Positions 448-35,059 of a DNA stretch of 53,888 nucleotides are shown in pieces. The stretch lies in NCBI GenBank assembly GCA_029547145.1, contig JAKPPV010000043.1, positions 1 to 53,888 on the forward strand, written 5' to 3'. Within the stretch, counting starts at the first letter, position 1, and the number at the start of each line of letters is the position of its first letter. A program made the position numbers and the translations under genes. The notes below the pieces were generated by a model, which saw nothing but the letters and a program-made list of their open reading frames with translations, was not told the DNA's origin and did not search any database. Source of the DNA: Methanobacteriota archaeon (lineage in GTDB: Archaea > Halobacteriota > Methanomicrobia > Methanomicrobiales > Methanospirillaceae).

Positions 448-1518
448 CTAGACCGGGTCCATCCGCGTCCAGTTCCCCGTCAGGTGCTCGTTCGGGTTAT
501 AGCCGTAGCTGTCCGTGAGGATCCGCTCGCCGAGCGCGTTCGTCCAGGCGGCCACGTGCCCGCCCTCGAGCTCGACCGTCCGCTCCTGGTAGGGGTCGTA
601 GTAGGTCTCCACGCCGCGGATCGCCTGGCTGAACTCGTCCGCCGCACGGTCCTGGGCCGCGGACGCCGCACGGTACGACTCCTGGAGCGCATCGAACGCC
701 CGGGAGGACTCCTGCCAGCTGCGCGTCCGCGCCTCCATCACCTGGTCCGCCATCTGGCTCCACCGCCGGCTGAAGGCCCCGATCTGCTGGATCCTCTGGG
801 TCTGCTGCTGGTAGAGCCCCGTCATCGTCTGCTCCACCTGCTGGAGCCAGGCGGGGTTCAGCCGTATCGAGGACTTCATCATCCGGAAGAGGTTCATGTT
901 CGCGTCGAGCTCCCCCTCCCGCGCCCTGACGCCGAAGGCGCTCAGGGTGCAGATCACCATCCCGGTCCCCGGCACCTGGATCACCTCCAGGCCTCCGTAG
1001 ATCTCCTCCTCGATCACCGCCTCCCCGACCGTGTAGGTGATCCGCACCTTTCCGAAGCGCACCGGGGTCCGCGGCGGGTTCGCCGGGTCGTACAGCATCG
1101 GTTCCGTCGGCGGCAGCGGGCCCCTCCCGGTGATCCGGACCCCCTGCACCCGTCCCCGGTAGGCGGGGAGGATCGTGTCCACGATCGCCTGGTCCGCCTC
1201 GACCGGTTCGTGGACCTTCGTGCTCGGCGTCTCCCAGGTCTTCAGGTGCATGCGGGCGAACGGGTCCGTGTTCCACATGTACTTGTGAACCGGGAACCCC
1301 TCCACCGCCCGCAGGCCATCGGGGCTGACGACGGCGAAGTTCGAGTAGACGGGCATGTGGATGTCGTTCACCCAGGTGATCCCGCCGTAGCAGGTCCAGT
1401 CGTCCGGGATCACCATGCGGAAGGCCTCGATGTTGAAACCGGCCCGGTCGATGCACTTGATCTGGCGATATCCTCCCATCGGGTATACCCTCGAAGAGAG
1501 GGTGAGGGGATCGCCCAT
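448..1518 (-). CDS. Hypothetical protein with an uncharacterised conserved N-terminal domain and a Q-rich / coiled-coil-like C-terminus; paralog of the 4061-5302 gene
   Basis: 356-aa ORF. Residues IKCIDRAGFNIEAFRMVIPDDWTCYGGITW...NFAVVSPDGLRAVEGFP align with IRCVDAAGPGTEVFQLTVPEGWVFYGGMEW...NFAVASPDGRVAVQFFP of the divergent gene. No recognisable family. Confidence 0.6.
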   Translation of the reverse strand: MGDPLTLSSRVYPMGGYRQIKCIDRAGFNIEAFRMVIPDDWTCYGGITWVNDIHMPVYSNFAVVSPDGLRAVEGFPVHKYMWNTDPFARMHLKTWETPSTKVHEPVEADQAIVDTILPAYRGRVQGVRITGRGPLPPTEPMLYDPANPPRTPVRFGKVRITYTVGEAVIEEEIYGGLEVIQVPGTGMVICTLSAFGVRAREGELDANMNLFRMMKSSIRLNPAWLQQVEQTMTGLYQQQTQRIQQIGAFSRRWSQMADQVMEARTRSWQESSRAFDALQESYRAASAAQDRAADEFSQAIRGVETYYDPYQERTVELEGGHVAAWTNALGERILTDSYGYNPNEHLTGNWTRMDPV

Positions 1519-1575
1519 AAAGGTGATGATCCCGCCGGCGGGCAGGATGCGGGGGGTATCCGGGGGTCTTCCAGC

Positions 1576-2694
1576 TCACGTCCCGCCGCGGTGATCGGCG
1601 CCGATGCGCGTGCCGCAGAACGGGCAGAAGACCGATCCGGGGTCGATCCCCTCCCCGCACGACGGGCAGGACGCACCCACCGGGGTCCCGCAGGAGGGAC
1701 AGAACCGCGCCGCCTCCGGCAGGGCAGCGCGGCAGCGCCCGCACCGCCGGTCGGCCGCGGGCGGGACCGGGCCGCCCCCGGCATCGGCGCCCTGCCGCAT
1801 CCCCGCCGCCATCGCCTGGCCGATCGCGAACCCGGCCCCCGCCCCCGCCCCGAGACCCGCGAGGGAGGCGCCGTTCCCGCCGAGGGCCGCCCCCGCGCCG
1901 GCGCCCTCGATCGCCTTCCCGGTCGCGTACTGGAGGTAGTTCACGCCGAGGGTCGCCATCGCCCCCCGCTTGTCGACCGCCTCCTGCACCTCCTCCGGCA
2001 GGTTGATGTTCAGGCCGGCGATCCGGGTGACCGCGAGACCGTAGGGGGCGACGTCGCGGTTCAGCCGGGCTAGCACCAGCTGCTCGATCTCCTGGAGGTG
2101 CGCGGGCATCTCGAGGACCCCCAGCCCCTTCTGGTCCTTCAGCTCGCCCAGGGTGTCGTTGATCACCAGGACGAGCTGGTCGCGCAGCCACCGGACGATC
2201 TCCTCCGAACGGGTGATCCCGCGGGTCCCGACGAACTGCGTGATCAACAGGACCGGGTCCGTGACCCGGTAGGCGAACTGGCCGAAGGCCCGGAGCCTGA
2301 CCAGGCCGAAGTCCCGGTCGCGGAAGACGAGGGGCTCGGCGGTGCCGAAGTTCGCCCGGAACTCCCGGCGCTGGACCCAGTAGACCTCACCGATCTGGAC
2401 GATCCCCGTCACCGTCTTCGCCAGGGTGCCGAGGAGCGGGACGGTCTCCGTGGTGAGGGCGTAGCGGTCCGCCCGGTCGAAGAGGTGCAGGACCTTCCCG
2501 TCGCGGAGGAAGAGCGCCATCTCGTCCTCCCGGACCAGGATGTTGTCGTTCAGGCGGATGTTCCGGGGGAGCCGGAAGATCACGTTCTCTCCCTTGTCAC
2601 GGTCCTGCCAGTAGAAGGTCTGGCGGGCGTCCCCCCCTTCCAGGTCCCCGCCCGGGGAGGGGCCGCCGGGGGGATCGAACAGGCCGGGGGTCAT
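1576..2694 (-). CDS. SPFH/band-7 (Band_7_1-like, YdjI-type) domain protein with a Gly/Ala-rich linker and a C-terminal double zinc ribbon
   Basis: 372 aa. N-terminal 250 aa look like a stomatin/flotillin-type SPFH fold with no N-terminal TM helix. C-terminus has CGRC..CPSCG and CPSCG..CPFCG ribbons. Its ATG overlaps the stop of the upstream gene (ATGA at 2691-2694). Confidence 0.65.
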   Translation of the reverse strand: MTPGLFDPPGGPSPGGDLEGGDARQTFYWQDRDKGENVIFRLPRNIRLNDNILVREDEMALFLRDGKVLHLFDRADRYALTTETVPLLGTLAKTVTGIVQIGEVYWVQRREFRANFGTAEPLVFRDRDFGLVRLRAFGQFAYRVTDPVLLITQFVGTRGITRSEEIVRWLRDQLVLVINDTLGELKDQKGLGVLEMPAHLQEIEQLVLARLNRDVAPYGLAVTRIAGLNINLPEEVQEAVDKRGAMATLGVNYLQYATGKAIEGAGAGAALGGNGASLAGLGAGAGAGFAIGQAMAAGMRQGADAGGGPVPPAADRRCGRCRAALPEAARFCPSCGTPVGASCPSCGEGIDPGSVFCPFCGTRIGADHRGGT

Positions 2695-3338
2695 CGGAAC
2701 ACCCCGATCCCCGCCATCGCCTCCCTCCTCTCCACGACGAGACGCCGGACCTCTCCCAGGCCCTCCGCGACCCGCCGGCAGGCCCCGGCGAGCCCCGGTC
2801 CGTCGTCCGTCCGGGCGGCGGTCCGGGCGAGGTCGGCGGTCCGCTCCACGCCCTCCACCGCACCGATCAGGGAGGAGTCGTAGTCGTAGAGGCGGCGGAG
2901 GGCCGGTCCATCGATCGTGTAGGCGGCACAGATGCCGCTGTACCCCTGCTCCGCGTGGCGGATGCTCCCCATGACACCCTGCGCCTCCCCGAGGAGCACC
3001 CCGACCTCCCGGACGCCGGCAAGGTCGAGCCGTTCGGCCGCCGACGCGCGGGCCTCCTCGAGGGCGGGCAGGACGAACCGGGCGAAGCGGTCGGCGAGCT
3101 CCGACCGGAGGAGGGCATCGGCGATCCGGAGGTCCTCGGCATCACGGTATTCGCGCCAGCCCGGTATGCTCGCCTGGATCCGCTTGATCAGCCCCCGGTC
3201 GTCCAGGACCCGTTCGCGGAGATCGACGCGTGGCCCGGTATCGTCCCGGACGGCGACCGCGTCACGCCCCCCGCAGGCCGGACAGTCCGCGCTCCCCTCC
3301 GCGAGCGGAGCACCGCATCTCGGGCATTTCGCCATCAT
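2691..3338 (-). CDS. N-terminal zinc-ribbon protein with a C-terminal domain of unknown function (possibly YdjG/DUF4178-like)
   Basis: 215 aa beginning MMAKCPRCGAPLAEGSADCPACGG (C4 ribbon). Translationally coupled to the SPFH gene. Confidence 0.55.
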   Translation of the reverse strand: MMAKCPRCGAPLAEGSADCPACGGRDAVAVRDDTGPRVDLRERVLDDRGLIKRIQASIPGWREYRDAEDLRIADALLRSELADRFARFVLPALEEARASAAERLDLAGVREVGVLLGEAQGVMGSIRHAEQGYSGICAAYTIDGPALRRLYDYDSSLIGAVEGVERTADLARTAARTDDGPGLAGACRRVAEGLGEVRRLVVERREAMAGIGVFR

Positions 3339-3390
3339 CCTGAGCCTCTTCTTCCTCGTATTCCGGCTGACCCGAAGAACCCTTCGTTCC

Positions 3391-3975
3391 CTACCGCAGC
3401 GGGGCGCCGCAGCTCTGACAGGTGGTCCGGGTGATGTCGACCAGGCTTCCGCAGTACTGGCACGGGATCCGGACGACCTCGCGGACGATCACCCGCTCGC
3501 CGGTCAGGGCACCGGGGAGCGGATCGCCGGGGCCGACGTCCTCGAAGCAGGAGGTGACCTGCGTGGGACCCACCGTCTCCGCCCGCCCCGGCGGGGCCGT
3601 CCCGGCGTACGCCTCCCTCGCCTCGTCATACCGCCCGCAGGCCTCCAGGACGGCCCCGAGGGCCTGGTGCAGCTCCCGGTTCCCGGGAGCGGACGCGATC
3701 GCGGTACGCAGGACCTCGATCGCCTGGTCCCACCGCCCGATCGCAGAGAGGGCCCGGGCCTTCTGCAGTACGACCGCGCCATCCGCGGGATCGATGCCGA
3801 GCGCGGCGTCGAACTCCCGGAGGGCGCCGATGGGATCGTTGCAGGAGAGCAGGTACGTCCCCACCTGGAGGTGCAGCTCCTTGCCGATCCGATCGAGCAG
3901 ACCGAGGTCCTTCTCCGGCATGCGACCACCCGGGGGAGGGCACCCCCCGTATCCGAGCGTGGGATGGTCCATCAC
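3391..3975 (-). CDS. TPR-repeat protein with a C-terminal zinc ribbon
   Basis: 194 aa. TPR-like helical repeats (ALGIDPADGAVVLQKARALSAIGRWDQAIEVLRTAI..., HQALGAVLEACGRYDEAREAY) and C-terminal CQYCGSLV...CQSCGAPL. First gene of the minus-strand cluster. Confidence 0.55.
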   Translation of the reverse strand: MMDHPTLGYGGCPPPGGRMPEKDLGLLDRIGKELHLQVGTYLLSCNDPIGALREFDAALGIDPADGAVVLQKARALSAIGRWDQAIEVLRTAIASAPGNRELHQALGAVLEACGRYDEAREAYAGTAPPGRAETVGPTQVTSCFEDVGPGDPLPGALTGERVIVREVVRIPCQYCGSLVDITRTTCQSCGAPLR

Positions 3976-4060
3976 CTAAACCTTCTCATGCGGAACCGGC
4001 CCCGGGCCCGGGTCCCTGCGGATCGTCACCTTTATCTGTGGTCCGCCTGATGGCATCCCC

Positions 4061-5302
4061 ATGCAGGGGTCATCCGTCATCCGGTGCGTCGACGCGGCAG
4101 GACCGGGAACCGAGGTCTTCCAGCTCACGGTCCCGGAGGGCTGGGTCTTCTACGGCGGGATGGAGTGGTCCGGCGACCCGTCCTTTCCCGTCCAGGCGAA
4201 CTTCGCCGTCGCGAGCCCGGACGGCAGGGTTGCGGTCCAGTTCTTTCCCGACCACGCGTCGGCATGGAACGACGACGAGGGGGTGCGCCGGTCCATGCCC
4301 GCGACGGAGTTCGTCCGTGTCGCACCCCCTCCCACGCCGGAGGAGGCCCTGCGGGAGTGGGTCGTCCGGCGCTACCGGCAGGCCGTCGGGCCGCTCGAGT
4401 TCCTGACCGTGCCGGGGGTGCCGGACCCCCGGATCCCGGCCGTCCCTCCGGACGTCCAGGAGGCCGCCGGGTTCTCGCTCCCCCCGGTGCCGGTGACGGG
4501 GAGGGTCCGGGTCCGCTACCAGCTCCGGGGAACGCCGATGGAGGAGGAGTTCTGGGGCCAGCTCACGGTGAACCGGGTCCCGCCCTCCCCCGGGATGCCG
4601 TTCCCGTATACCTACTCCGTGCTGAGCGGGACGTGCTCATACCGGGCCCCGGCCGGCGAGCTGGACTCCCGCCTGGGCATGCTCTTCGGGATCCAGGGCA
4701 GTTACCGGCCCAACCGGGAGTACTTCGAGTCTCTCGGGCGCCTCTTTTTCCCGGACCCCGCACTCGTCCAGGGGGAGAGGGACCCGGCGCGGGCGCAGGC
4801 GACCCTCCAGCAGCACCGGAACGTCGCCATGCAGAAGATCGCCGAGAACAGGAACCGGTGGGCCGCGCTCGTGGGCAGGGCCGGGCAGGGGGGTCCGTCC
4901 GGTCCCGATCCGCTCGTCGCGCTCCTGGGATACCCGCCGGAGGGGCGACTCCTGGGCACGGTGGCCGGTCTGGTTCCGCCCCCCGGGCCGGGCCCGTATG
5001 CGCCCGGCGAACCGGCGGGTCGGACTGCGCCCCCGCCGTCACCGGCGGTTCGCAGGTACTGCCCTGCCTGCGGGAGGGAGGGAACGCCCGGGGCGAACTT
5101 CTGCACGCACTGTGGCACCCGCCTGGCGGAGGCGACGGGACCGGAGGTCCCCGTCCCACCGCAGGGTCCGCCGGTCATCTGGCCGCGATCGCCGGGGGTG
5201 ACGGGCGGTCCGCCTGACGACCTTCCGGTGATCTGCCCCCACTGCAAGGCCCCGATGCCCCCCGGGAGTTCGACCTGCCGGGCCTGCGGTTCCCCGCTCT
5301 GA
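4061..5302 (+). CDS. Paralog of the 448-1518 protein fused to a Pro-rich linker and a C-terminal double zinc ribbon
   Basis: 413 aa. N-terminal ~270 aa are homologous to the 448-1518 product. C-terminus carries CPACG..CTHCG and CPHCK..CRACG. Divergent from the TPR gene. Confidence 0.6.
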   Translation: MQGSSVIRCVDAAGPGTEVFQLTVPEGWVFYGGMEWSGDPSFPVQANFAVASPDGRVAVQFFPDHASAWNDDEGVRRSMPATEFVRVAPPPTPEEALREWVVRRYRQAVGPLEFLTVPGVPDPRIPAVPPDVQEAAGFSLPPVPVTGRVRVRYQLRGTPMEEEFWGQLTVNRVPPSPGMPFPYTYSVLSGTCSYRAPAGELDSRLGMLFGIQGSYRPNREYFESLGRLFFPDPALVQGERDPARAQATLQQHRNVAMQKIAENRNRWAALVGRAGQGGPSGPDPLVALLGYPPEGRLLGTVAGLVPPPGPGPYAPGEPAGRTAPPPSPAVRRYCPACGREGTPGANFCTHCGTRLAEATGPEVPVPPQGPPVIWPRSPGVTGGPPDDLPVICPHCKAPMPPGSSTCRACGSPL

Positions 5303-5328: not shown

Positions 5329-7569
5329 TCACGCCGCCGGGGCGGGGGGCAGGGTGAAGAAGAAGGTCGCACCCTCGTCCGGGCGGGACGTCGCCCAGAT
5401 CCTGCCACCGTGCCGCCGGATGATCCGGGCCACCGTGGCGAGGCCGATCCCGGACCCCTCGAACAGGTCCGCCCGGTGCAGACGCCGGAACGGGACGAAG
5501 ACCGACTCCGCATCCGTCGCCTCAAACCCGACGCCGTTGTCCCGGACATAATAGACCGTCTCCCCGCCGCCGGGAAGCGTGCCGATCTCGACCCGGGGGT
5601 CCTCCCGGTACCGGGAGAACTTCAAGGCGTTGCCGACCAGGTTGACAAAGACCTGCCTGAGCATCGCGCGGTCGGCAGAGCACCCCGGCAGGGCCCCGAT
5701 CGTGAACCTGGTCCGCCGTTCGGGGTCCTGTTCGAGCTCCGCCGAGACGACCTCCTGCACCAGCGACGCCGCGTCGATCTCTTCCCGGACGAGTGCCTGC
5801 CGGTCCAGCCGGGAGAGGGTGAGCAGGCCGTCGATGAGTGCGCTCATCTGCCGGATCGTCCGGTGGATCCCGTCCAGGTACCGCCGGCCCGTCTCATCCA
5901 ACAGGGGACCGGCCGCCATCTCCAGGAGCGACGAGTAGCCGTCGATCGCCCGGAGCGGGGACCGGAGGTCGTGGGAGACCGAGTACGTGAACGCCTCCAG
6001 GTCGGCGGTCCGCTGCGCCACCCGGTCCTCCAGCCCGGCGTTCAGGAGGCGGACCTCCTCCTCGATCCGCTTCCGCTCGCTGATATCGGTGAAGCTCCCG
6101 CGCGTCCCGACGATGGTGCCGTCTTCGGTCCGCGGCGCGATCTGGACGAGCATGGCGAAGGTGGAACCGTCCCGCCGGAGGCCCGTGTTCTCCGAACCGT
6201 GGTGCACCTCTCCCGTTAAGACCGCGCCGAACAGCCGCTCCGCGCGAGCGCGCTCTTCGGGCGAGATCATGGAGAAGATGGAGAGACCACGTTCGAGTTC
6301 CTCGCTGTCGACCCCGACGGAATCCAGCGCCGCGGGGTTCGCAAAGGTCACGGTGCCCGAACGGTCGGTCTCGAAGACGGCCTGGGGGAGCAGGCGGACC
6401 GTGTCGGCGAACCGCTGCTCGGAGGCCTCGCGCCTCCGGATCTGTTCCTTCAGCTGGTCGACCATCATCCCGGTCCTGACCGCGAGGCGGGAGAGCTCGG
6501 CACCGCCGGCGGGCCGGATCGGGTGGTCGAGGTCGCCGCCGGCGACGGCGTCGATGTCGGCGGCGATCTGCTCGATCGGGCGCGAGAGCCGGCGCGAGAC
6601 CATGACCGCGAGGAGCCCGCCGGAGAACAGGACGAGCAGGGCGGCGAACCCGTGAACCAGCCCGAGCCGCTCCACCTCGCCGGCGAGCCGGGTATCGTTG
6701 TACGTGAGCTTCGCGAAGATGCTCATGTCCGAGGAGTAGTCCTGGTCGCGCATGTCGACCGGTAACCACACGACCGTCCTGCCCGCGGCGGGGTCGGTCG
6801 CCACCTGCCGGGACCGGTTCGTCCAGAGCAGGAGGTCGAGCATGGCGTCCTCCTCCGGGGTCGGAACGTACGAGGCGTTGTGGATCAGCCGCTTCTGTTT
6901 CTGGAAGAGCAGCACCTCGTCGAGGTACGGGTTGAACGCCCGGAGCTCGTCGACGACATCGTAGTAGTCGAGTTGCCTGCGCTCGACCTCGAACAGCTCG
7001 GACTCAAGCCCGAGTTCCATCACGAAGCGGTGGTCGGGCGTCGGCATGTAGCCGTACTTCGTCATCCTCCCGGTCGTCCAGTCCTTGACGACCCGGTCGG
7101 GGAAGAACCCCGAGGAATTGCGGATCGTGTTGAAATACCCGACGATGTCGGGGTAGATCACCCGAAAGTCCAGGTTGAGGTCCTTCGGCTTGGACGTGTA
7201 CTGGACAACGCAGCTGTCGTTGATCACGAAGACGTCCATCCCACCGGTCCGCTGCTTCAGGGCATCCAGGTCCATCCGTGCCGGGTCGCCCCCGGCACGC
7301 TGGTATTCGGCCATCACGGTCCCGAAGGCGTCCTCCATCTGCCTGTTGAACGTGCGGTCGTAGAGTTTCAGGCTGGTGTCGATCATCCGGAACGAGGTGT
7401 TGATCTGCGACTCCGTGAACCCCTGGAGCCGCTCCGCATTCGATACGAGCGTGCTCCTCGAGTTCTCGTAGCTGGACCAGATACCGCCGATGACGAGCAC
7501 GGCGATGATCACGAAGAGTACCGCCATCAGCAGATACGAGAATGGAACCTCACGATCGTACCCCGGCAT
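5329..7569 (-). CDS. Membrane sensor histidine kinase (TM, ~290-aa extracytoplasmic sensor domain, TM, HAMP, PAS, HisKA, HATPase_c)
   Basis: 746 aa. N-terminal TM (LLMAVLFVIIAVLVIGGIW) and a second TM (FAALLVLFSGGLLAVMV). PAS region. H-box SHDLRSPL. C-terminal ATPase motifs (DNGVGF, GSGIGLA). Confidence 0.8.
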   Translation of the reverse strand: MPGYDREVPFSYLLMAVLFVIIAVLVIGGIWSSYENSRSTLVSNAERLQGFTESQINTSFRMIDTSLKLYDRTFNRQMEDAFGTVMAEYQRAGGDPARMDLDALKQRTGGMDVFVINDSCVVQYTSKPKDLNLDFRVIYPDIVGYFNTIRNSSGFFPDRVVKDWTTGRMTKYGYMPTPDHRFVMELGLESELFEVERRQLDYYDVVDELRAFNPYLDEVLLFQKQKRLIHNASYVPTPEEDAMLDLLLWTNRSRQVATDPAAGRTVVWLPVDMRDQDYSSDMSIFAKLTYNDTRLAGEVERLGLVHGFAALLVLFSGGLLAVMVSRRLSRPIEQIAADIDAVAGGDLDHPIRPAGGAELSRLAVRTGMMVDQLKEQIRRREASEQRFADTVRLLPQAVFETDRSGTVTFANPAALDSVGVDSEELERGLSIFSMISPEERARAERLFGAVLTGEVHHGSENTGLRRDGSTFAMLVQIAPRTEDGTIVGTRGSFTDISERKRIEEEVRLLNAGLEDRVAQRTADLEAFTYSVSHDLRSPLRAIDGYSSLLEMAAGPLLDETGRRYLDGIHRTIRQMSALIDGLLTLSRLDRQALVREEIDAASLVQEVVSAELEQDPERRTRFTIGALPGCSADRAMLRQVFVNLVGNALKFSRYREDPRVEIGTLPGGGETVYYVRDNGVGFEATDAESVFVPFRRLHRADLFEGSGIGLATVARIIRRHGGRIWATSRPDEGATFFFTLPPAPAA

Positions 7570-7654: not shown

Positions 7655-9007
7655 TCACCCCCGCTCTCCCGTCCCGCACCGCTCCACCGTCAGCCCGCCC
7701 GGGTCCACCGTCCCCCTCGACGGCGGGTGGATCTCGACGACCTCCCCCGGGTGGTCGGTGACGACCGCGATCCGGTTGCCGGCCATCGCGTACCCCCGCG
7801 CCCGGTAGCGCTCGAGCTCCGCGGCGTGCGCCGGCGCGTCCACGTACTCCAGCCGCTCCGTGCACCCGAGCAGCACGGGCCGGCCCGTGCCGGCGAAGCG
7901 TCGGATCGTGATCCCCACGTCGGCGTTGTTCCCGACCATCTGCAGCGCCCGGCGCGTCGCCCCGGTGGAGACGAAACCCTCGACCCGCGCCCGGTCCCCG
8001 CCGTACTCGATCACGAGCGAGTATGCCGAGCCCGTGTCCGAACAGTCTATCAGGGTCAGCCCGCCGGGCTCCTGGTTCTTGCAGAGGAAGCCGGCCTTCC
8101 GGCACCGCTCCGCGTGGCAGTCCACGAGACGGGCGGACTGCACGTAGAACCCGGACTGGTAGAGCTCCGCCGGCACCGTCCCCGAGCGCTGCCCGCAGGC
8201 GACCGCCCGGCACCGCTCGAAGAGGACATCCACGGCCCGCTGCCGGTGCCCGTTCCACGAGCCGTCCAGGTGGAACCCGTCCTGCCAGCAGTCGACCGCC
8301 TGGCAGTCCCGGACGGTCATCCGCTCGATGTCCCCCGCGTCCGGGATGTCGAAGCCGCAGGACCAGTCCCGGACGCCCGGCACCCCGTTCCTCCCCTCGA
8401 ACCCCGAGCCGGCACGGATCGCGTGGCACTGGTCGAAGAGGAGATCGGCGAACCCGCCGCCCTCGCTCGCACCGGCAAGGTTCATCGAGAAGCCGTGGTG
8501 GTAACTCATCTTTGCCGTGCACCTCCGGAACGTGAGGTTCCGCAGGGTCCGGCCCCGCCGCCCCCAGACCATGAAGGCCGCCGTGCACCCGCCCTTCCGT
8601 CCGAACGGCAGGAATGTCCGGCCGTCACTCGAGTGCGTGATGTAGACGTCCACGGCGGTGAACCGGTCCGCGCGGCACTCCAGCCCGACGTACCCGAACC
8701 CGCCCAGGTTCGCGATCGTCACCCCCGGCGCGTCCACCGCGATCCGGCACGGCTCCTGCCCCGCCACCAGCCGGGTGAGGCCGGGGCCGGCCCCCCGTAC
8801 CGTCACCCCCTCCGCCGGCCGGAGGTACCGGTTCTTGGCCGCGTTCAACCCGGCGTTTCCGTCGAAGGTTCCCGCCGTCAGGACGACCTCCCGGTCCGGC
8901 ACGGCGAGCGCCCGTGCGAGCACGGCGACATCGTCCCTCCCCGAGCAGACGACGTCCGCGCCGGCACGGTCCGCCGGCGCGGCGTCGCGGGCGGCGACGA
9001 CGATCAC
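7655..9007 (-). CDS. Cys-rich protein of unknown function, possibly a parallel beta-helix repeat protein
   Basis: 450-aa ORF with coding-like composition. Repetitive VxDC/CxxxGF segments suggest a right-handed beta-helix. No signal peptide evident. Low functional certainty. Confidence 0.45.
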   Translation of the reverse strand: MIVVAARDAAPADRAGADVVCSGRDDVAVLARALAVPDREVVLTAGTFDGNAGLNAAKNRYLRPAEGVTVRGAGPGLTRLVAGQEPCRIAVDAPGVTIANLGGFGYVGLECRADRFTAVDVYITHSSDGRTFLPFGRKGGCTAAFMVWGRRGRTLRNLTFRRCTAKMSYHHGFSMNLAGASEGGGFADLLFDQCHAIRAGSGFEGRNGVPGVRDWSCGFDIPDAGDIERMTVRDCQAVDCWQDGFHLDGSWNGHRQRAVDVLFERCRAVACGQRSGTVPAELYQSGFYVQSARLVDCHAERCRKAGFLCKNQEPGGLTLIDCSDTGSAYSLVIEYGGDRARVEGFVSTGATRRALQMVGNNADVGITIRRFAGTGRPVLLGCTERLEYVDAPAHAAELERYRARGYAMAGNRIAVVTDHPGEVVEIHPPSRGTVDPGGLTVERCGTGERG

Positions 9008-9273
9008 GGCTCCTCCCGGCGGAGCAGATCCCCGCCCAGGTCGGCGACCCGCGAGAAGAACCGGTCGACCATGCGGGCGATCTCCCGCGCCTCCGCGTCC
9101 GTGATCTCCCCGTCCTCCACGGCCTCCCGCCAGGCGGAGACCTCCGCGGCGAAGGCCCGGACCACCCCGGCGAGGGCGGCGGCCTGCCTCGAGCCGAGCC
9201 CGGCACCGAGCCGGAACGCGGCGGCGAGGGCGAGCGCGGCGATCGCCCAGTCCGCGTACGGATCAACCTGCAC
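9004..9273 (-). CDS. Small hypothetical protein (89 aa), Ala-rich N-terminal hydrophobic segment, acidic C-terminus
   Basis: Stop overlaps the start of the 7655-9007 gene by 4 nt (coupled). No homology recognised. Confidence 0.35.
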   Translation of the reverse strand: MQVDPYADWAIAALALAAAFRLGAGLGSRQAAALAGVVRAFAAEVSAWREAVEDGEITDAEAREIARMVDRFFSRVADLGGDLLRREEP

Positions 9274-9586
9274 GACGAGCCCCCCGCTCGCGATGAAAGA
9301 GGCCGGCGAAGAGGCCGGCCCTCCCAGGTTCCATCATCTCCATCTCCTCCAGGTCCCCCTCTCCCGCCAGGGAGGGTGGGGCGGCGCGGGCAAAGAGCGG
9401 CTGCCGGACGGTCCCCCGGAGGCGGTGACGGCGTGGAACCGGGAGACCGGGTCCGCCGGCGGGTCGGAAAACGGTCGGGTCCGTCCCCGGCGCCGGGACG
9501 GGAATCCGGCTCTGTTGCCCGCACGAAACCGCCATCCGGGCGGGGATCGGCGGTCCTTCGGCCGGGCATGCCGTCGGACGGGGCGG

Positions 9587-12175
9587 TCAGGAGACGACGA
9601 CCGGCGGCCCGTCCGTGCGTCCGTCTGCCCCGCCGGTGACGGTCACGGTCGAGGTGGCGACCGAACTGCCCCACGGGTTCGTCGCGGTGAGCGAGACCTC
9701 GTAGGTGCCGGGCCGGCGGAAGACGACGGACGGGCTCTGCATCGAGGTCCAGGCGAACCCGCCGAAGTCCCACCGCCAGGAGGTCGCGTTCGACGACTCG
9801 TCCATGCACCGGACGTAGAGCGGTGCGGGGCCCAAGGTCCGGCTCAGGTTGAAGCGTGCGACCGGCGACCGGGGGTCGGGCCCGACCCGGATCAGGGCCG
9901 GTTTCGAGACGGTCGCCGACCCGGCCAGGGACCAGACGGTCAGGTTCACGGTGTAGGACCCCGGGGCCGTGTAGGTATGCACCGGGTCCTGCCCCGTGGC
10001 GGAGGCGCCGTCGCCGAACTGCCACCACCAGTGGACCGGGGAGCCGGTCGAGTTGCCCGAGAAGGCGACCGCGAACGGGGCGGGCCCCCCGGTCCGGTTC
10101 GCCGTGAAGTCGGCCACGACGGCGGGCGACGGGGTCACCGCCGGACCGGTCGCCACCACGCAGTCGTGCCGGGTCGCCGTGCTCGTCGTCCCGTCGCTCC
10201 CCGTCACCGTGAGGGAGACCGTGTACCGGCCCGGACGGGTGTAGGTGTGGAGCGGCTCGTGCTCGACCGTGCCCGTCCCGTCGCCGAAGTCCCAGGACCA
10301 GGTGACCGCCCCGGAAGAGTAGTCGATGAACCGGAGCGGGAGTGGCGCCGGCCCGGACTGGGTGGTCACCCCGAAGGCCGCCCGCGGCGGACCCCCGCCC
10401 GCGCCGCGGAGCCGCTCGATCCCGAGGGCCCGGGCGAGTCCGGTTCCGTCGGGCCACCCGTGGCCCCATCCGTCGTCGAAGCCGCCCGGTCCCCGGTCCT
10501 GCGCCGTCGCGAAGAGGGCGTCCTTCACCTCCTGGGCGGTCGCTGTTGGCCGCCCGCTCCAGGCGAGCGCGGCGAGACCGGCCACGTGCGGTGCCGACGC
10601 GGAGGTGCCGAAGAACCGGCGGCGGCCCGCATCGTAAAAGCCCCACCCGCCGGCCCCCGAGATCAGGTTCCCGTCCGGGCCGGCGACATCCGGCTTTCTC
10701 CGCACCTCCGGGGCCGGCCACCGGATCGTCACCGGGCCGCGCGACGAGTAGGGCTCGAGGGCGTCGGGCGTGGCCACGTCGGCCGCCCCCACCGCGACGG
10801 CGCCGTGCGCCGCCGGGTGTCCGAAGATCGAGTCCGCCTCGACCAGGTTGACCGGCAGGAGCTTCGCCTGCCCCCCCTGCGCCACGAAGACCTCGAGGGT
10901 CCGGGCCTCGCCCGAGTAGAGGGCGACGTTCACCTCGACATCCAGGTCCTCGTCCGGCTCTGCGAAGACGACGGCGATCTCGATCGGGTTCCCCGCCCCC
11001 GACTGGGCGTCGTCCGAGAGCGCGAGCAGGCCGGTCGGGTCGCCCCGCCGGTGGATCGCCAGGTCGTAGTCGTTGGACGAGGCCCCCCAGGGGTCGTCCC
11101 AGTGGAGGACCACGATCGCATACGCCCCGGAACCGGCAGGGAGCGAGAGGTAGAGCCGCCGTTCCTCCGCCGTCGTCCCGGACGAGAAGTCGTGGATGCT
11201 GGTCCCGGGCTCGGGGCAAAACCGGCCCTGGTAGTGGGAATCGGCGAAGTTGGCCGCGGACGATACGTAGAGGACCCCCCGTTCCCGGACGATCCGGTCC
11301 ACGTGGGTGGCGATCAGGCCGTCCTCGAAGGCCGGCTCCGCCAGGTAGGAGATATCGTCGACGATCACCCGGCACCCCGCGTTCACTAGGGCCGTGATCC
11401 CCTCGTTGAACCCGAGCTGGTTGTCGGCCATGTCGTGAAAGTAGAGCTCGGCCTCGGGGGCGATGTCGTGGACGATCTCCAGCATCGCCGTCCCCTCGTC
11501 CCCGCCCTGGCGGTTCGAGAGGATGTGGAGGTCCGCCGGCAGGTCACCGCTGTCGCGCGCTTCCTCCCAGGAGTCGACGCCGTCCGAGATGACCCCGACC
11601 CGGACCCCCCTGCCGGCATGGCCGAGCGTCGAGCGGAGCCGGTCCGCCAGGAGGAGACCGTCCCCCTCGGTCTGGACCGACCCGGCGTTGACGTGCGGCG
11701 GGTCGACCGTCCGGATCGAACGGACGAACGGCCGGGAGGCGAGGTCGGAGAGGTCCGTGGTCGCCACCCACGCCGCGACGACCCCGTGCTCCTCGTCCCG
11801 GTTCTCGACCCGCCGGACCAGCGGGTCGACGGCGCTCGTCAGAGAGCCCGCGGTCACCCAGATGTAGACGTGGACCTCCTCCGCACCGGCCCCCCGGGCA
11901 CCGGAAGTCCCCCGGAGCGCCCTCCGCTCGCGGAGTCCCCGGGCCACCGACTCCCGTGTCTGGCCGGGCAGGCGGGCCGACGGGTCGATCAGCTGGACCA
12001 GGTCGGTCGAGAGCTTCGCCCGGGGACCCTCCTTGAAGAGGGCGGGGGGCGGTACCGCGCCGACGGCGCCGTCTGCCGGGTGGTGCTCGTTCTGGGCTGC
12101 AGCCAGGCAGGGGACCGCGACTGCCAGGAGGAGGAGCGCGAGGAGCAGGAGGGGGAGGCGGGGCATGCGGGACAC
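9587..12175 (-). CDS. Secreted subtilisin-like serine protease (peptidase S8) with multiple C-terminal PKD domains
   Basis: 862 aa. Signal peptide MSRMPRLPLLLLALLLLAVAVPCLAAA. S8 catalytic motifs (VGVISDGVD, HGTAMLEIVHDIAP, GTSASAPHVAGLAALA). PKD repeats WSWDFGDG...HTYTxPGxYTVxLTV. Confidence 0.85.
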   Translation of the reverse strand: MSRMPRLPLLLLALLLLAVAVPCLAAAQNEHHPADGAVGAVPPPALFKEGPRAKLSTDLVQLIDPSARLPGQTRESVARGLRERRALRGTSGARGAGAEEVHVYIWVTAGSLTSAVDPLVRRVENRDEEHGVVAAWVATTDLSDLASRPFVRSIRTVDPPHVNAGSVQTEGDGLLLADRLRSTLGHAGRGVRVGVISDGVDSWEEARDSGDLPADLHILSNRQGGDEGTAMLEIVHDIAPEAELYFHDMADNQLGFNEGITALVNAGCRVIVDDISYLAEPAFEDGLIATHVDRIVRERGVLYVSSAANFADSHYQGRFCPEPGTSIHDFSSGTTAEERRLYLSLPAGSGAYAIVVLHWDDPWGASSNDYDLAIHRRGDPTGLLALSDDAQSGAGNPIEIAVVFAEPDEDLDVEVNVALYSGEARTLEVFVAQGGQAKLLPVNLVEADSIFGHPAAHGAVAVGAADVATPDALEPYSSRGPVTIRWPAPEVRRKPDVAGPDGNLISGAGGWGFYDAGRRRFFGTSASAPHVAGLAALAWSGRPTATAQEVKDALFATAQDRGPGGFDDGWGHGWPDGTGLARALGIERLRGAGGGPPRAAFGVTTQSGPAPLPLRFIDYSSGAVTWSWDFGDGTGTVEHEPLHTYTRPGRYTVSLTVTGSDGTTSTATRHDCVVATGPAVTPSPAVVADFTANRTGGPAPFAVAFSGNSTGSPVHWWWQFGDGASATGQDPVHTYTAPGSYTVNLTVWSLAGSATVSKPALIRVGPDPRSPVARFNLSRTLGPAPLYVRCMDESSNATSWRWDFGGFAWTSMQSPSVVFRRPGTYEVSLTATNPWGSSVATSTVTVTGGADGRTDGPPVVVS

Positions 12176-12262
12176 TCACCAGGTGGGTTCGTACAGGGAG
12201 ACTGTAGCGGACACCCGGTTGAACCTGTCGGTTCGTCGCAGGGGAGGGGGACGGAGGGGGTG

Positions 12263-14032
12263 TTACCCCACCACCAGGACGGGCGGCCCCCGCACCGCAC
12301 CCCTGGCACCCGCCCCAGGGTCGGTCACGGTGACCGTGCCGGCCGCAGACGAGGACCCGTGGGCGTTCGTGGCGATCAGCCGGACCGTGTAGGTGCCGGG
12401 CCGGCGGAAGACGACGGAGGGACTCTGCATCGAGGTCCAGGCGAGCCCCCCGAACTCCCAGCGCCATGAGGTCGCGTTCGACGATCTGTCCGTGCACCGG
12501 ACGTAGAGCGGTGCGGGGCCGGAGGTACGGCTCAGGGTGAAGTCCGCGACCGGCCGGCGCGGGTCCGAGAGGACCGAAACCAGGCCATGCTTCGTCATCG
12601 CGTCCGATCCGCCCTCACCGAAGACGGTCAGGGTGACGTCGTAGATCCCCGGGCGCTGGTAGAGATGGACCGGGTTCTGCTCGACGCTGCCGGTGCCGTC
12701 GCCGAACTGCCACCACCAGTACCCGGGTGAACCGGTGGATGCGTCCGTGAACCCGACGGCGAACGGGGCGGGTCCCTCCGTCTGGTTCGCCGTGAAGTCC
12801 GCGACCGGGACGGAGGGCCGCAGGATGGAGAGGGCGGAGACGGAGACGAACCGTGCCCTGGTGGCGTTCGCCTTCTCACCCGACCGGCCCGTGACGGCGA
12901 GAGAGACCGTGTACTCCCCGTTCTTCGTGTAGGTATGAACCGGATGCTGCTCCCCGGACCCGGACCCGTCGCCGAACGACCAGGACCAGGAGGTGGCCCC
13001 GCTCGACTCGTCCCGGAAGACGACCGTGAGCGGTGGCGCGCCACGCACGGGGCTCGCCCCGAAGGCGGCGATGAGCGCGTCCTCGGGGTAGGAACGGGGG
13101 ACGAATCGCTGGACGCGATCGGCGATGGAGTCGACGACGAGGACCCGCCCGTCGGGAGCGACGGCGACCCCCGCCGGGCGGTAGAACTGCCCGATGCCGG
13201 TCCCCTCGGAACCCCACTGCAGGAGGTATCCCCCGTCCGGTCTGAAGCCCTGGACCCGGTGGTTGTTGGAGTCGCAGACGAAGACGGTGCCGTCGCTTCC
13301 CACCGCCACCCCGGCGGGGCCGGCGAACTGCCGGTCGCCCTTCCCGGCGGTGCCCCACGAGCCGGTGCACACCCCGTCAAAGGAGAAGCGCAGGACCCGG
13401 TTCGAGGACGGGTCGGTCACCAGGAGGGCCCCGTGCCGGTCGTCGACCGCGATCCCGGCGGGGCCGGCAAACTGGCCCTCGCCCGTGCCCGCGCTGCCCA
13501 TCTTCGTCAGGAAGGACCCGGACGGGGAGAAGACCTGCACCCGCCGGTTGTTGCGGTCGGTCACGAAGACCGTCCCCGATGCGTTCACCGCGATCCCGGC
13601 GGGGCACTGGAACCGCCCCTCCCCGAGACCGATGCTGCCCCAGCTGGTGACGAACTCCCCGTTCGACCTGAACTTCTGCACCCGGTGGTTCTGCGTATCC
13701 GCCACGTAGACGTTCGACGCGGCGTCGACGGCGATCCCGAGGGGCGCGTTGAACTGTCCCTCCACCTGGCCGTACGAGCCCCACTGCCGGAGGAACGCCC
13801 CCGAAACGTTGAAGACCTGGACGCGGTGGTTGCCCGTGTCGAGTACATAGACGGTGCCATCGGGACCGATCGCGATCCCCTGGGGGCCGGAGAACTGTCC
13901 GGGAGAGGTGCCGAACGAACCCCACTGCCCGGCATAGGTCGCGCCGGCATCCGCGCCGGGATCGATCGCCCCGGCGGGAAGGAGGCAGAGGGCGATCGCC
14001 AGTACCGGGATCAGGAGCGGTCTTCGTTTCAT
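12263..14032 (-). CDS. Secreted NHL-repeat (six-bladed beta-propeller) protein with C-terminal PKD domains
   Basis: Signal peptide MKRRPLLIPVLAIALCLLPAGA (start chosen at 14032, inside the longer ORF to 14152). Repeated GxFxxPxGIAVxxxGxVYVxDxxNHRVQxF NHL units. Three PKD domains; the last is ~75% identical to the protease C-terminus. Confidence 0.8.
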   Translation of the reverse strand: MKRRPLLIPVLAIALCLLPAGAIDPGADAGATYAGQWGSFGTSPGQFSGPQGIAIGPDGTVYVLDTGNHRVQVFNVSGAFLRQWGSYGQVEGQFNAPLGIAVDAASNVYVADTQNHRVQKFRSNGEFVTSWGSIGLGEGRFQCPAGIAVNASGTVFVTDRNNRRVQVFSPSGSFLTKMGSAGTGEGQFAGPAGIAVDDRHGALLVTDPSSNRVLRFSFDGVCTGSWGTAGKGDRQFAGPAGVAVGSDGTVFVCDSNNHRVQGFRPDGGYLLQWGSEGTGIGQFYRPAGVAVAPDGRVLVVDSIADRVQRFVPRSYPEDALIAAFGASPVRGAPPLTVVFRDESSGATSWSWSFGDGSGSGEQHPVHTYTKNGEYTVSLAVTGRSGEKANATRARFVSVSALSILRPSVPVADFTANQTEGPAPFAVGFTDASTGSPGYWWWQFGDGTGSVEQNPVHLYQRPGIYDVTLTVFGEGGSDAMTKHGLVSVLSDPRRPVADFTLSRTSGPAPLYVRCTDRSSNATSWRWEFGGLAWTSMQSPSVVFRRPGTYTVRLIATNAHGSSSAAGTVTVTDPGAGARGAVRGPPVLVVG

Positions 14033-14135
14033 GACATACCTCCACGGTCTGATCTGCATCGATCCGGTCGGTGGATAAACGTTCGTACGAGAGGGAGACC
14101 GGACCGGGGCCCCGACGGGCCACGGGGAGGGACGC

Positions 14136-14717
14136 TCAGGGGGAGGGGGCACCGGCGGCCCGGCCCAGCGCGAAGGCCCGCCGGTTCACCTCCACCGTCT
14201 TCGGTGGGACGGACCGCTCGATCGCCGCGAGGAGCGAGGACTCCCGCAGGGGGAGGTGGTGGGACGAGGCCCCGATCAGCACCACGTTCTGGGCGAGCTC
14301 GGACCCCGCCTCCCGGGCGAGGGCCGCCGTATCGATGGCGAGCGGCCGGAACGGGGCGAGCCGGGCCAGGCACTCGTCGGACGTCGGCATCGGGAGGCCC
14401 TGGGAGAAGACCGTGGTCGGGGTGATGATCCCCGTGCTGGTGACCACGCGACCCCCGGGGCGGAGAAAGTGGAGGTAGCGGACCGCCTCGAGGAGGTCGA
14501 AGGCGATCAGGAGATCGGCCGTGCCCGGATCGACCAGGGGACCGTACCGGCCGTCGATCCGGAGGTGACACTCGACCGAGCCCCCCCGCTGGGCCATGCC
14601 GTGGGTCTCGGCCCCGCGGACGGACCGGCCCTCCTCGAGGGTCGCCCGGCCCAGGATGTTGGAGGCGAGGATCGTCCCCTGCCCCCCGACCCCGACGATC
14701 AGAAGGTCGAAGCTCAT
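14136..14717 (-). CDS. iorB: Indolepyruvate:ferredoxin oxidoreductase subunit beta
   Basis: 193 aa, MSFDLLIVGVGGQGTILASNILGRA... Start overlaps the iorA stop (ATGA). The ORF track merges it into an 813-aa artefact. Confidence 0.85.
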   Translation of the reverse strand: MSFDLLIVGVGGQGTILASNILGRATLEEGRSVRGAETHGMAQRGGSVECHLRIDGRYGPLVDPGTADLLIAFDLLEAVRYLHFLRPGGRVVTSTGIITPTTVFSQGLPMPTSDECLARLAPFRPLAIDTAALAREAGSELAQNVVLIGASSHHLPLRESSLLAAIERSVPPKTVEVNRRAFALGRAAGAPSP

Positions 14718-16672: not shown

Positions 16673-16747
16673 GGGCCCGTAGCATAGCCAGGTGGTGCGC
16701 CCGGCTGATAACCGGGAGGCCATGAGTTCGAATCTCATCGGGCCCAT
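16673..16747 (+). tRNA. tRNA-Ile (anticodon GAU)
   Basis: GGGCCCGtaGCATAGCCaGGTGGTGCGCCCGGCTGATAACCGGGAGGCCATGAGTTCGAATCTCATCGGGCCCa. 7-bp acceptor stem, anticodon loop CTGATAA, T-loop GTTCGAATC. Confidence 0.85.
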
Positions 16748-16787
16748 GCACGTCTTGTTTTTATTCATTCCCCTGCAATCTCTTCTC

Positions 16788-17240
16788 ATGGAGCGTTCAT
16801 TCCTGGTCGTCCTCGCGATCGGTGTCGCGGTGGCGGCGGGGCTTGCCCTGGTATCGCCGTTCTTCTCGCTCATCGCCCTGATCATCGTCGGGGTGGTGCT
16901 GATGGTGATCTGGATCGGGAGCGATACGCGCGACCTGCCCGACGTGCAGGTCGACTTCTCCGAGGACGGGCACGCCGTCATCGTCGAGAACAAGGGGAAC
17001 GCCCCGGCGCAGAGGGTCCACGTCTCGCTCGTCCCGATCGGGCTCGAGGCCGACGTCCCGTCCCTCGCCCCCGATGAGGCCCACCCGGTGCCGCTCGCCG
17101 GGCAGGTGGCGGAGGCGAAGGCGATCATCACCTACCAGAACGGTTCGGGCCAGACGTTCCGGCGGACCATGGTGATCTCGGTCCTCCACTCCTCGGAGGA
17201 CCTGTTCCGACCCGCCTTCGCCCTCTTCCGCTGGAAGTAG
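16788..17240 (+). CDS. Hypothetical membrane protein (two TM helices plus a soluble C-terminal domain)
   Basis: 150 aa from MERSFLVVLAIGVAVAAGLALV... The 5' extension of the ORF-track call overlaps the tRNA and was trimmed. Confidence 0.5.
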   Translation: MERSFLVVLAIGVAVAAGLALVSPFFSLIALIIVGVVLMVIWIGSDTRDLPDVQVDFSEDGHAVIVENKGNAPAQRVHVSLVPIGLEADVPSLAPDEAHPVPLAGQVAEAKAIITYQNGSGQTFRRTMVISVLHSSEDLFRPAFALFRWK

Positions 17241-29291: not shown

Positions 29292-30838
<1,547 letters not shown>

Positions 30839-30944
30839 TCTCTGTCAACCTCACTGGAGGTGGCGCCCTGCGCCACACTAGGAAGGAAGTTGTATTCTTA
30901 CACATATAAATTTACCTATCTCCCCCCATGGGTGCGGGGTCCGC

Positions 30945-30970
30945 CGGGTTCCGGAAAAAAGGGGGGGGCC
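30945..30970 (-). terminator. C8-T6 tract immediately after the MFS stop codon on the minus strand (candidate oligo-T terminator)
   Basis: Plus strand shows aaaaaagggggggg directly 5' of the tca stop triplet at 30971. Confidence 0.3.
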
Positions 30971-32212
30971 TCAGGCGGTCCCGAAGGGGGGACGGAGGAG
31001 GAGCGCCGCGATCCCGATACCGAGGAGCGCGAGTCCGGCGACCGGGAGGAAGACCGCCGTGTACGACCCGACCAGGTCGCGGAGCGTCCCCGCGAGCAGG
31101 TTCCCGACGATCGCGCCGACGCCGTAGGCGGTGAAGACCAGGCCGTAGTTCGGGCCGTAGTACCGGGTGCCGCAGTACGCCGCCGTGCAGGCGGGTGCGA
31201 TCGCGAGCCAGCCGCCGAGGCAGAGCCAGAGCGCGGCGAAGCCGATGACGTAGACGGCCCACGCCCCGCTCCCGGAGCCCGCCCAGAGGAGGAGGGCCGC
31301 CCCCGCGATCAGGGCCAGGTTTGCGATCGCGGTCGTCCTCGTCCCGAGCCGGTCGACGAGCGCCCCGAAGAGCGGCCGTCCGACCCCGTTGAAGACCGCG
31401 AAGACGCCGACCAGCACGGCCGCTGTCGCCGCCGGGAGGAGGAAGACCTCCTGGCCGACGGGCGAGGCGATCCCGATCGCCATCAGGCCGGCGACCGTCC
31501 CGATGAAGAAGCAGAGCCACAGGCCCCAGAATGCTCCTGTCCGGACCATCTCCGACCTCGAGAGGTCGCGGGTGCCTGCCTGCGCCGCCGTCGGCGTCCA
31601 GCCCGCCGGCGCCCCCCCGGGGGGGGGGAACCGGAGGGGGAGACCGGCGAGGACGATCACCAGGAGGGCCCCGGTCCCCACCCAGGCCATCGTCGCGAGC
31701 GGCCCGATCGTGGCGATCAGGGCGTTCGCGAGCGGCGCGGTGACGAGCGGGGAGAGGCCGAATCCCAGGACCGCCAGCCCCACCGCGAGCCCCCGCCGGT
31801 CGGGGAACCAGCGGGCGGCGACCGCGATCGGGCAGTTGTAGACGATCCCGACGCCGGCGCCGCCGATCAGCCCGTAGGCGAGGGTGAGCATCGCCATCGA
31901 GGTGGACTGGGACCCGAGGAGCCACCCCGCGCCGACGATCACCCCGCCGGCGACCGCGAGGAGCCGGGGGCCGTACCGGTCGAGGAGACCCCCGACGAGC
32001 GGCATACCGATGGCGAAGACCGCCAAAAAGACCACGAACGGGAAGAGGCTCTCGGTCGCCCCGACGTGAAACGCCGCCTCGAGCGGCTTGCGGAAGACCG
32101 ACCAGGCGTAGATCGAACCGATCGCGAGGTTGATCACGAGCCCGAGCAGGACGAAGACCCAGCGGCCACGCTCTGCGGGCATGCCGAAGAGGGTGGAGGA
32201 CGGGTCCGCCAT
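30971..32212 (-). CDS. MFS transporter, oxalate/formate antiporter (OFA)-like family
   Basis: 413 aa, 12 predicted TM helices, motif GSIYAWSVF typical of OFA-family MFS. Confidence 0.75.
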   Translation of the reverse strand: MADPSSTLFGMPAERGRWVFVLLGLVINLAIGSIYAWSVFRKPLEAAFHVGATESLFPFVVFLAVFAIGMPLVGGLLDRYGPRLLAVAGGVIVGAGWLLGSQSTSMAMLTLAYGLIGGAGVGIVYNCPIAVAARWFPDRRGLAVGLAVLGFGLSPLVTAPLANALIATIGPLATMAWVGTGALLVIVLAGLPLRFPPPGGAPAGWTPTAAQAGTRDLSRSEMVRTGAFWGLWLCFFIGTVAGLMAIGIASPVGQEVFLLPAATAAVLVGVFAVFNGVGRPLFGALVDRLGTRTTAIANLALIAGAALLLWAGSGSGAWAVYVIGFAALWLCLGGWLAIAPACTAAYCGTRYYGPNYGLVFTAYGVGAIVGNLLAGTLRDLVGSYTAVFLPVAGLALLGIGIAALLLRPPFGTA

Positions 32213-32215
32213 CCC

Positions 32216-34114
<1,899 letters not shown>

Positions 34115-34261
34115 GGGTCTCTCTCGTCATTCATACTCGTCCCGCCCGTATCACGGTGCAGGTGCTCTCAAGGTCGGTCCCGGAGTCTCAGGGCCTGGCC
34201 CTCGTCTCCATCCCTGGGCCGGACGGTCACCACCGCTGCAGCCCGGCTCTCCGTGTGAAGA

Positions 34262-34320
34262 ATTCCAGTCGTCTCCAAGTTTTGTAATGATAAATCATTA
34301 TAGTGATAATAGTTTTGTAT
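34262..34320 (-). promoter_or_regulatory. AT-rich island (~35% GC) ~150-200 nt upstream of the acs start; candidate BRE/TATA region
   Basis: ttttgtaatgataaatcattatagtgataatagttttgta stands out against ~70% GC surroundings. Confidence 0.3.
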
Positions 34321-34352
34321 CGGAGGCCCGGTCCGGACGGAGCGGGAGGGGT

Positions 34353-34808: not shown

Positions 34809-34812
34809 GGGC

Positions 34813-35022: not shown

Positions 35023-35059
35023 TCCAGTCAGATCAGGGGACGACACGAGAAAAAGGTTG

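Follow-up and report, generated by a model that had tools for sequence, protein, structure and literature searches.

SPFH proteins are organisers of membrane microdomains in every domain of life; to our knowledge, their archaeal partners are almost unstudied. Here we consider a cluster of five genes, A to E, grouped around an SPFH gene (B) and located at the end of a 53,888-nt archaeal contig (JAKPPV010000043.1, ~71% GC) from a metagenome-assembled genome (MAG) that we place in the Methanoregulaceae; the whole contig is called the window below. The closest described system is PspA-YdjGHI (SamGHI) of Bacillus subtilis, whose SPFH protein, YdjI, we take to be a member of PF13421 (Band_7_1).

YdjI combines a soluble SPFH domain with a low-complexity segment and ends in a zinc (Zn) ribbon (Scholz 2021, PMC8581546; Ravi 2024, PMC11237479; Baur 2026, bioRxiv 10.64898/2026.02.06.704340). 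It forms a soluble, higher-order SPFH oligomer, which is anchored by SamG and SamH (YdjG and YdjH), restrains the SamGH membrane complex and recruits PspA (PMC8581546; PMC11237479; 10.64898/2026.02.06.704340). YdjG, with two ribbons, an NTF2-like domain and a transmembrane (TM) helix, and YdjH are both membrane proteins (PMC8581546; PMC11237479). Surveys of the phage-shock network are blind to modules free of PspA, because they started from PspA or PspC. A second system for comparison is the group of Meth_adaptin loci, whose defining components are Vps4, ESCRT-III and the adaptin-appendage domains (Ig + TBP) (Makarova 2024, PMC10936438).

The five genes of the window are open reading frames (ORFs) of coding type, with a GC content at third codon positions (GC3) of 0.88-0.96:

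448..1479, minus strand: gene A, 343 aa when counted from M14 (longest ORF to 1518)
1576..2694, minus strand: gene B, 372 aa, YdjI/SamI-type soluble SPFH protein
2691..3338, minus strand: gene C, 215 aa, N-terminal Zn ribbon and five-helix bundle
3391..3975, minus strand: gene D, 194 aa, TPR repeats and C-terminal Zn ribbon
3976..4060, no strand: divergent intergenic region between D and E, 85 nt
4061..5302, plus strand: gene E, 413 aa, paralog of A with two Zn ribbons

A first-pass annotation of this DNA had reported these five ORFs, with an SPFH domain and a double ribbon in 1576-2694, TPR repeats and a ribbon in 3391-3975, one ribbon in 2691-3338 and two in 4061-5302, and the Pfam matches given below bear it out on each of these points. 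Its count of six CxxC..CxxC pairs spread over four of the five proteins is also correct (B and E have two each, C and D one each, and A has none). Ribbon carriers make up four of the five cluster genes versus one of the 30 other genes of the window (hypergeometric P=4.7e-4), the single gene outside the cluster having the Fe-S motif of a ferredoxin, and the ribbon density of the cluster is thus above chance. No TM helix was predicted in A, B, C, D or E. Nor did any of the five proteins match DUF4178, DUF4247, TPM_phosphatase or PspA in Pfam (E<=0.1), and the DUF4178 and DUF4247 assignments suggested by the first-pass annotation are not supported. The Pfam scan covered 25 of the 35 coding-type ORFs of the window, the other 10 lying mostly beyond ~43.3 kb; among these 25 there was no match to PspA_IM30 or Snf7, in agreement with the earlier remark that no PspA is present.

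The C+B gene pair

The product of gene B matches Band_7_1 over nearly the whole profile (positions 9-210 of 211; E=2.6e-39, 135.5 bits against a cut-off of 24) with residues 44-247 (nt 1954-2565). The domain is followed by a Gly/Ala-rich, glycine-zipper-like segment with a GAGxGAG pattern (aa ~262-300, nt 1795-1911) and by a double Zn ribbon with four CxxC motifs (aa 318-360, nt 1615-1743; DZR, 3.2e-10). Its hydropathy maximum, KD(19) (Kyte-Doolittle), is 1.24, with no TM helix. The same layout runs through the 78 members of the SPFH family that we collected, in which the SPFH domain is followed by a G/A/M-rich GAGxGAG segment, a P/Q-rich linker and then four to six CxxC motifs. By its architecture, B is a YdjI/SamI-type soluble SPFH protein.

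Directly upstream of B, gene C encodes a Zn ribbon at the N-terminus (aa 5-22, nt 3273-3326) followed by a bundle of five helices (aa 38-215, nt 2694-3227). Reading the sequence at 2691-2694 confirms the ATGA, noted in the first-pass annotation, in which the stop of C overlaps the start of B. Most homologues of C have ~178 aa and no ribbon. The family is large: an exhaustive profile search collected 1,333 representative clusters with E<=0.001, of which 755 reach E<=1e-10. It includes bacterial members. While no Pfam family covers the helical domain, all 35 aligned C-family proteins match NCBIfam NF047596 (LIMLP_15305) over ~130 residues, with a best E of 7.7e-20 and with every score far short of the curated cut-off. 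LIMLP_15305 is a family of Leptospira hypothetical proteins, itself uncharacterised, that has in common with C an N-terminal ..PG.xGY..RE.RR.AD motif and a GYxG loop. Since C scores 27.9 bits against a curated cut-off of 210 for this model, it is a distant relative and not a member.

Two motifs are invariant in C, DDRGLIKKIQ..PG.RxYR.xED.R.AD.LLR and IRHAEQGYSGI. In the predicted structure (pLDDT, the predicted local distance difference test, 82), C is an up-down helical bundle, and the order of its helices would place both motifs in loops that share one end of the bundle, which suggests a single binding patch. The possibility that C is a PspA or ESCRT-III protein was considered and rejected, as no member of the family gave a PspA or Snf7 signal at E<=1 and the structure matched only generic bundles.

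A scan of species-representative genomes gave 324 C loci, and the best 80 of these, all archaeal, were used for counting gene pairs. They belong to Methanocorpusculum, Methanomicrobium, Methanocalculus and other Methanomicrobiales, to Thermoplasmata/Methanomassiliicoccales and to Methanoperedens. An SPFH gene follows C directly in 72 of the 80 loci. Because seven of the eight exceptions are truncated by contig ends and the eighth, L015, has a frameshifted copy, the pairing holds in 73 of the 73 loci with room for it. The distance from the stop of C to the start of the SPFH gene is -4, -1 or 0 nt in 44 of 78 loci and at most 20 nt in 72 of 78. The identity of the core proteins follows taxonomy, as vertical inheritance predicts. 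The conserved unit of the cluster is C+B. Conservation of the neighbourhood, which had been proposed as a check on the five-gene arrangement, was found in two related genomes, as E/D-C-B-A in L092 and as D-C-B-A in L001; the five-gene set is not broadly conserved. In L015, a chromosome-level Methanocorpusculum MAG, the SPFH gene is split into several frames (6573-7340), either through assembly indel errors or as a pseudogene.

No description of a C+Band_7_1 module was found in the searchable literature on Band_7_1, archaeal SPFH proteins and LIMLP_15305, and the C+SPFH gene pair is widespread in archaea but undescribed. The C family emerges from the analysis as an obligatory partner of YdjI-type SPFH proteins, one with no Pfam entry and with only one distant, below-cut-off NCBIfam match. 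Two fusion proteins fit the reading of this pair as an SPFH scaffold. For example, P0197 (339 aa) joins a C-like domain to DUF4178 (2.3e-16), an intracellular partner in CesT/Tir-PspA operons. In the other, P0177 (266 aa), the initial ~80 residues of a C-like protein are attached to a Band_7_1 domain of which the C-terminal two-thirds are present.

Usual partners of the core

Clustering the ORFs of 86 loci revealed a set of companion genes that recur across orders despite rearranged gene order: U1a/U1b in 60 loci, U4 in 41, U3 in 39, T118 in 14 and T181 in 11. In Methanomicrobiales the order is U1a-U1b-U3-U4-C-SPFH, and in Thermoplasmata and Methanoperedens it is (T118)-C-SPFH-U1a-U1b-U3. U1a and U1b are paralogs of each other, each having a ribbon at the N-terminus, a domain of ~200 aa and, at the C-terminal end, one or two TM helices. 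U3 carries a ribbon but lacks TM helices, while U4 is a protein of ~110 aa with three TM helices that is homologous to T118 (97% probability). No Pfam family was found for U1a, U1b or U4, and no TPM_phosphatase domain in the U1, U3 and U4 proteins of L008 (E<=0.05). T181 is a three-TM protein of one Thermoplasmata subclade; in 11 Thermoplasmata loci (e.g. L079:734-5320) a TPR protein of ~1,500 aa with C-terminal CxxC pairs and then T181 stand directly upstream of C-SPFH. Examples of the U1a-U1b-U3-U4-C-SPFH module are L008:3278-7754 and L090:891-5161, with L013, L014, L018, L029 and others. This conserved multi-gene archaeal module is present in the cultured methanogens Methanocorpusculum parvum and Methanomicrobium mobile, and we regard it as a more valuable result than the five-gene cluster itself. 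None of U1, U3, U4, T118 and T181 was found in the window by hmmsearch of its six-frame translation.

These data allow a comparison with PspA-YdjGHI, to which the first-pass annotation had likened the cluster. One part of that likeness stands, namely the YdjI/SamI architecture of B. As in Bacillus, the archaeal components are encoded in one operon, and U1 of the wider family, with its Zn ribbon, domain and TM helix, resembles YdjG in architecture only; it has no detectable homology to any Pfam family, and the likeness is one of layout. The other part does not stand. The partners encoded in the window are not counterparts of YdjG and YdjH, because they have no TM helix whereas YdjG and YdjH are membrane proteins. 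The cluster further differs in having no PspA (among the scanned ORFs), no TPM-domain YdjH and no TM partner, in having an obligatory extra partner, C, that is missing from the described Bacillus operon, and in belonging to archaeal hosts. It would resemble YdjI/SamI in its working, and it is not a YdjGHI system.

On balance, we lean towards reading the locus as a lineage-specific variant of C+B, a two-gene core widespread in archaea, which would act with its partners as a sub-membrane SPFH scaffold. The identities, architectures, gene coupling and conservation patterns of these genes are shown by the data above; how such a scaffold might work we infer by analogy with SamI and other SPFH proteins. 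B would oligomerise under the cytoplasmic membrane, as other SPFH proteins do, and would contact the membrane probably through its conserved glycine-zipper-like segment. C, a small helical bundle that is translationally coupled to B and has an invariant charged patch comprising R48, Y64/R65, E68/D69 and H128-G135, may bind B stoichiometrically as an adaptor or effector. The Zn ribbons found on nearly every component could keep the assembly joined by serving as short docking modules. It would then organise or restrain partner proteins, and its most likely function would be surveillance of the envelope or of membrane stress. In most archaea these partners would be the membrane proteins U1a/U1b and the small three-TM protein, plus a third Zn-ribbon protein. 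In the Methanoregulaceae clade, represented by three genomes, none of the usual partners lies beside the core in the DNA available, and the soluble proteins D, A and E may have taken their place, A and E possibly having been recruited for their Mog1p/PsbP-like binding fold (see below). The window variant is of interest chiefly for contrast, as it encodes no membrane anchor. The presence of the wider module in cultured methanogens opens the recruitment and regulatory targets of a soluble SPFH protein to testing.

A bolder version of this reading, which we consider speculative and rather improbable, is that C+SPFH is at the core of an ancient archaeal machine for membrane surveillance, one that works without PspA and is so far undescribed. 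C, as part of a LIMLP_15305 superfamily, would be its effector as PspA is for YdjI, and the ribbons would be a shared assembly code that lets lineages swap partner sets. If this were true, the Methanoregulaceae variant would be a natural experiment in which membrane-anchored sensors have been replaced by soluble TPR and Mog1/PsbP-like binders.

Genes D, A and E of the window variant

Gene D lies 52 nt upstream of C. Its product has TPR repeats at aa ~32-127 (nt 3595-3882; TPR_19, 1e-17) and a C-terminal Zn ribbon at aa 172-189 (nt 3409-3462; Zn_ribbon_3, 7e-4). It is plausibly a component of the system because a protein with TPR repeats and a ribbon, encoded upstream of C, arose independently in Thermoplasmata, and we consider D a likely true component.

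The first-pass annotation gave A as 448-1518. An ORF of this extent is present, and the true start is almost certainly M14 (nt 1479), judging from database entry P0001 and most full-length archaeal homologues, which begin at the same residue. The spacer between B and A is therefore 96 nt and not 57 nt. A consists of an N-terminal Mog1p/PsbP-like domain (nt 865-1479), a very long helix of ~80 residues (nt 616-855) and a small C-terminal beta domain (nt 454-612), with neither a Zn ribbon nor a TM helix. The assignment to the Mog1p/PsbP-like fold comes from superposition of the alpha/beta sandwich. E has the same domain together with a portion of the helix (aa 1-270, nt 4061-4870), then a Pro-rich linker and two Zn ribbons (nt 5060-5113 and 5234-5287; DZR, 4e-11), and it lacks the C-terminal beta domain of A. 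That the two proteins are paralogs, as proposed earlier, is upheld by BLASTP (E=2e-28, 29% identity over ~280 residues), and profile searches agree with the earlier remark that the duplicated domain belongs to no named family. At the sequence level neither A nor E matched the Mog1, PsbP, DcrB or DUF1795/Eag chaperone families. Compared with Mog1p/PsbP-like proteins (Mog1, PsbP, DcrB and DUF1795/Eag chaperones such as PA0094 and SciW), A adds the ~80-residue helix and the small beta domain and E the Pro-rich linker and two Zn ribbons. Both proteins lack a signal peptide and a TM helix and are cytoplasmic.

Other identities for A and E were tried. PPR matches of the A profile (A1) in the PDB contained no significant stretch and were dismissed as repeat artefacts. 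A and E are not divergent forms of U1 or U3 either, because profile-profile comparison with and without the ribbons found only the ribbons alike, the probability for the core domains being at most 0.3%.

A relationship to the Meth_adaptin loci would give A and E a role as adaptin-appendage-like cargo adaptors and C that of a divergent ESCRT-III/PspA, all in an ESCRT-like or vesicle-trafficking system. The Meth_adaptin loci, found in Methanosarcinales and likewise in methanogen hosts, contain an SPFH protein with a coiled coil and a Zn ribbon, two paralogous adaptors of which one has a Zn ribbon, and a nearby TPR protein. The fold of A, however, is not adaptin-like, C was rejected as an ESCRT-III protein for the reasons given above, and no Vps4, ESCRT-III or adaptin-appendage domain was found among the 25 scanned ORFs of the window. 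The cluster is not a Meth_adaptin ESCRT locus, and we give the wider trafficking idea very little credence.

The main alternative to a five-gene variant concerns A and E. Only C+B, perhaps with D, may be functional as a system, with A and E being unrelated neighbours by descent in one small clade and the five-gene set and duplicated accessory protein being coincidental; we regard this as possible and, as it stands, somewhat unlikely. The gene order speaks for a connection. The D-C-B-A block recurs in L001 (identities A 68%, B 73%, C 58%, D 40%) and in L092 (A 73%, B 76%, C 64%, D 55%), so that in all three genomes, which have different flanking genes, A and B share a strand and A follows B directly. 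In L092 an orthologue of E (65% identity, cut by the contig end) is divergent from D, as in the window. Both paralogs flank the same operon, E has the same DZR type of ribbon as B, and the usual paralog pair U1a/U1b is missing from the available DNA, an architectural gap that A and E would fill.

Against this, and against the scaffold reading as far as it takes in A and E, the three genomes are related, and shared ancestry explains part of the synteny. Among 44 metagenomic loci with room (>=1.5 kb upstream), A is unlinked to SPFH or C in 43, the exception coming from the same organism, and no conserved neighbours of A were found across the 43. A homologue from Chloroflexi stands alone, and archaeal homologues of ~50% identity adjoin the mtr operon. 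E-type proteins form only two clusters in 5.8 billion proteins; the second is P0214 (L095), which shares its metagenome of origin with L001 and is encoded on a separate contig that has no SPFH gene. Stand-alone bacterial homologues of A also carry Zn-ribbon fusions, so the ribbon is not specific to this system. The membership of A, and of E, is uncertain because A is stand-alone elsewhere. Further points weigh against the scaffold reading as a whole. The fold of C is generic, so its role cannot be read from its structure, and P0177, in which both domains are truncated, may be an in-frame deletion between neighbouring genes or an assembly artefact. The cluster encodes no membrane anchor, in a genome seen only as a ~54-kb contig with the cluster at its end.

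The A homologues near the mtr operon are found in other methanogens, where they sit between a divergent, uncharacterised gene of 188 aa and the mtrH end of the operon. This position is kept in at least three assemblies:

L004/L005, 7227-9044: A homologue by the mtr operon
L093, 5321-7134: A homologue by the mtr operon
L094, 5241-7056: A homologue by the mtr operon

A defence role had also been mentioned in the first-pass annotation. In an anti-virus or conflict system, the SPFH, TPR and Zn-ribbon proteins could be sensors and scaffolds, and the swapped accessory genes could reflect arms-race diversification. The accessory sets do vary between lineages around a fixed core, and in L002 (1-7104) ~0.9 kb separates an A homologue from a complete effector locus of CRISPR-Cas type I-E (Cas3, Cse1, Cse2, Cas7, Cas5), a placement that is probably coincidental. 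PADLOC-DB 2.0, however, gave no significant match, with three weak TPR matches to D (E 0.004-0.04) and none to the other four proteins, and no relatives of the A or C family were found in viral contigs. No effector domain, be it nuclease, protease, NTPase or another kind, is present, the genes nearby have housekeeping functions, and the agreement of core identity with taxonomy noted above is that of vertical inheritance. The cluster is not a known defence system; neither scan lent the idea support, and we consider a conflict role highly improbable.

Surroundings of the cluster

The region between D and E contains a candidate archaeal TATA box, CTTTATC (4030-4036), read from the sequence and centred 28 nt before the ATG start codon of E. 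This is the sole A/T-rich element of the region. Downstream of E, a histidine kinase gene (5329-7569) was considered as part of the cluster and excluded, because no kinase lies beside the cluster in L001 and the contig of L092 ends before this point. It is followed at 7655-14152 by a series of large genes on the minus strand whose products are probably surface proteins, namely a beta-helix protein, a subtilase and an NHL propeller, the last two with PKD domains.

A tRNA-Ile (GAT) at 16673-16746 was the single RNA gene detected in the window. An ORF at 16692-17240 overlaps it, and is therefore spurious or has a later start. On the other side of the cluster, a homopolymer run of 12 C (minus strand) occupies 186-197 in the 447 non-coding nt that separate A from the contig end. 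Two ammonium-transporter paralogs (29636-30838 and 35060-36262) bracket an MFS (major facilitator superfamily) transporter and an acetyl-CoA synthetase-like gene, the whole arrangement spanning 29636-36262.

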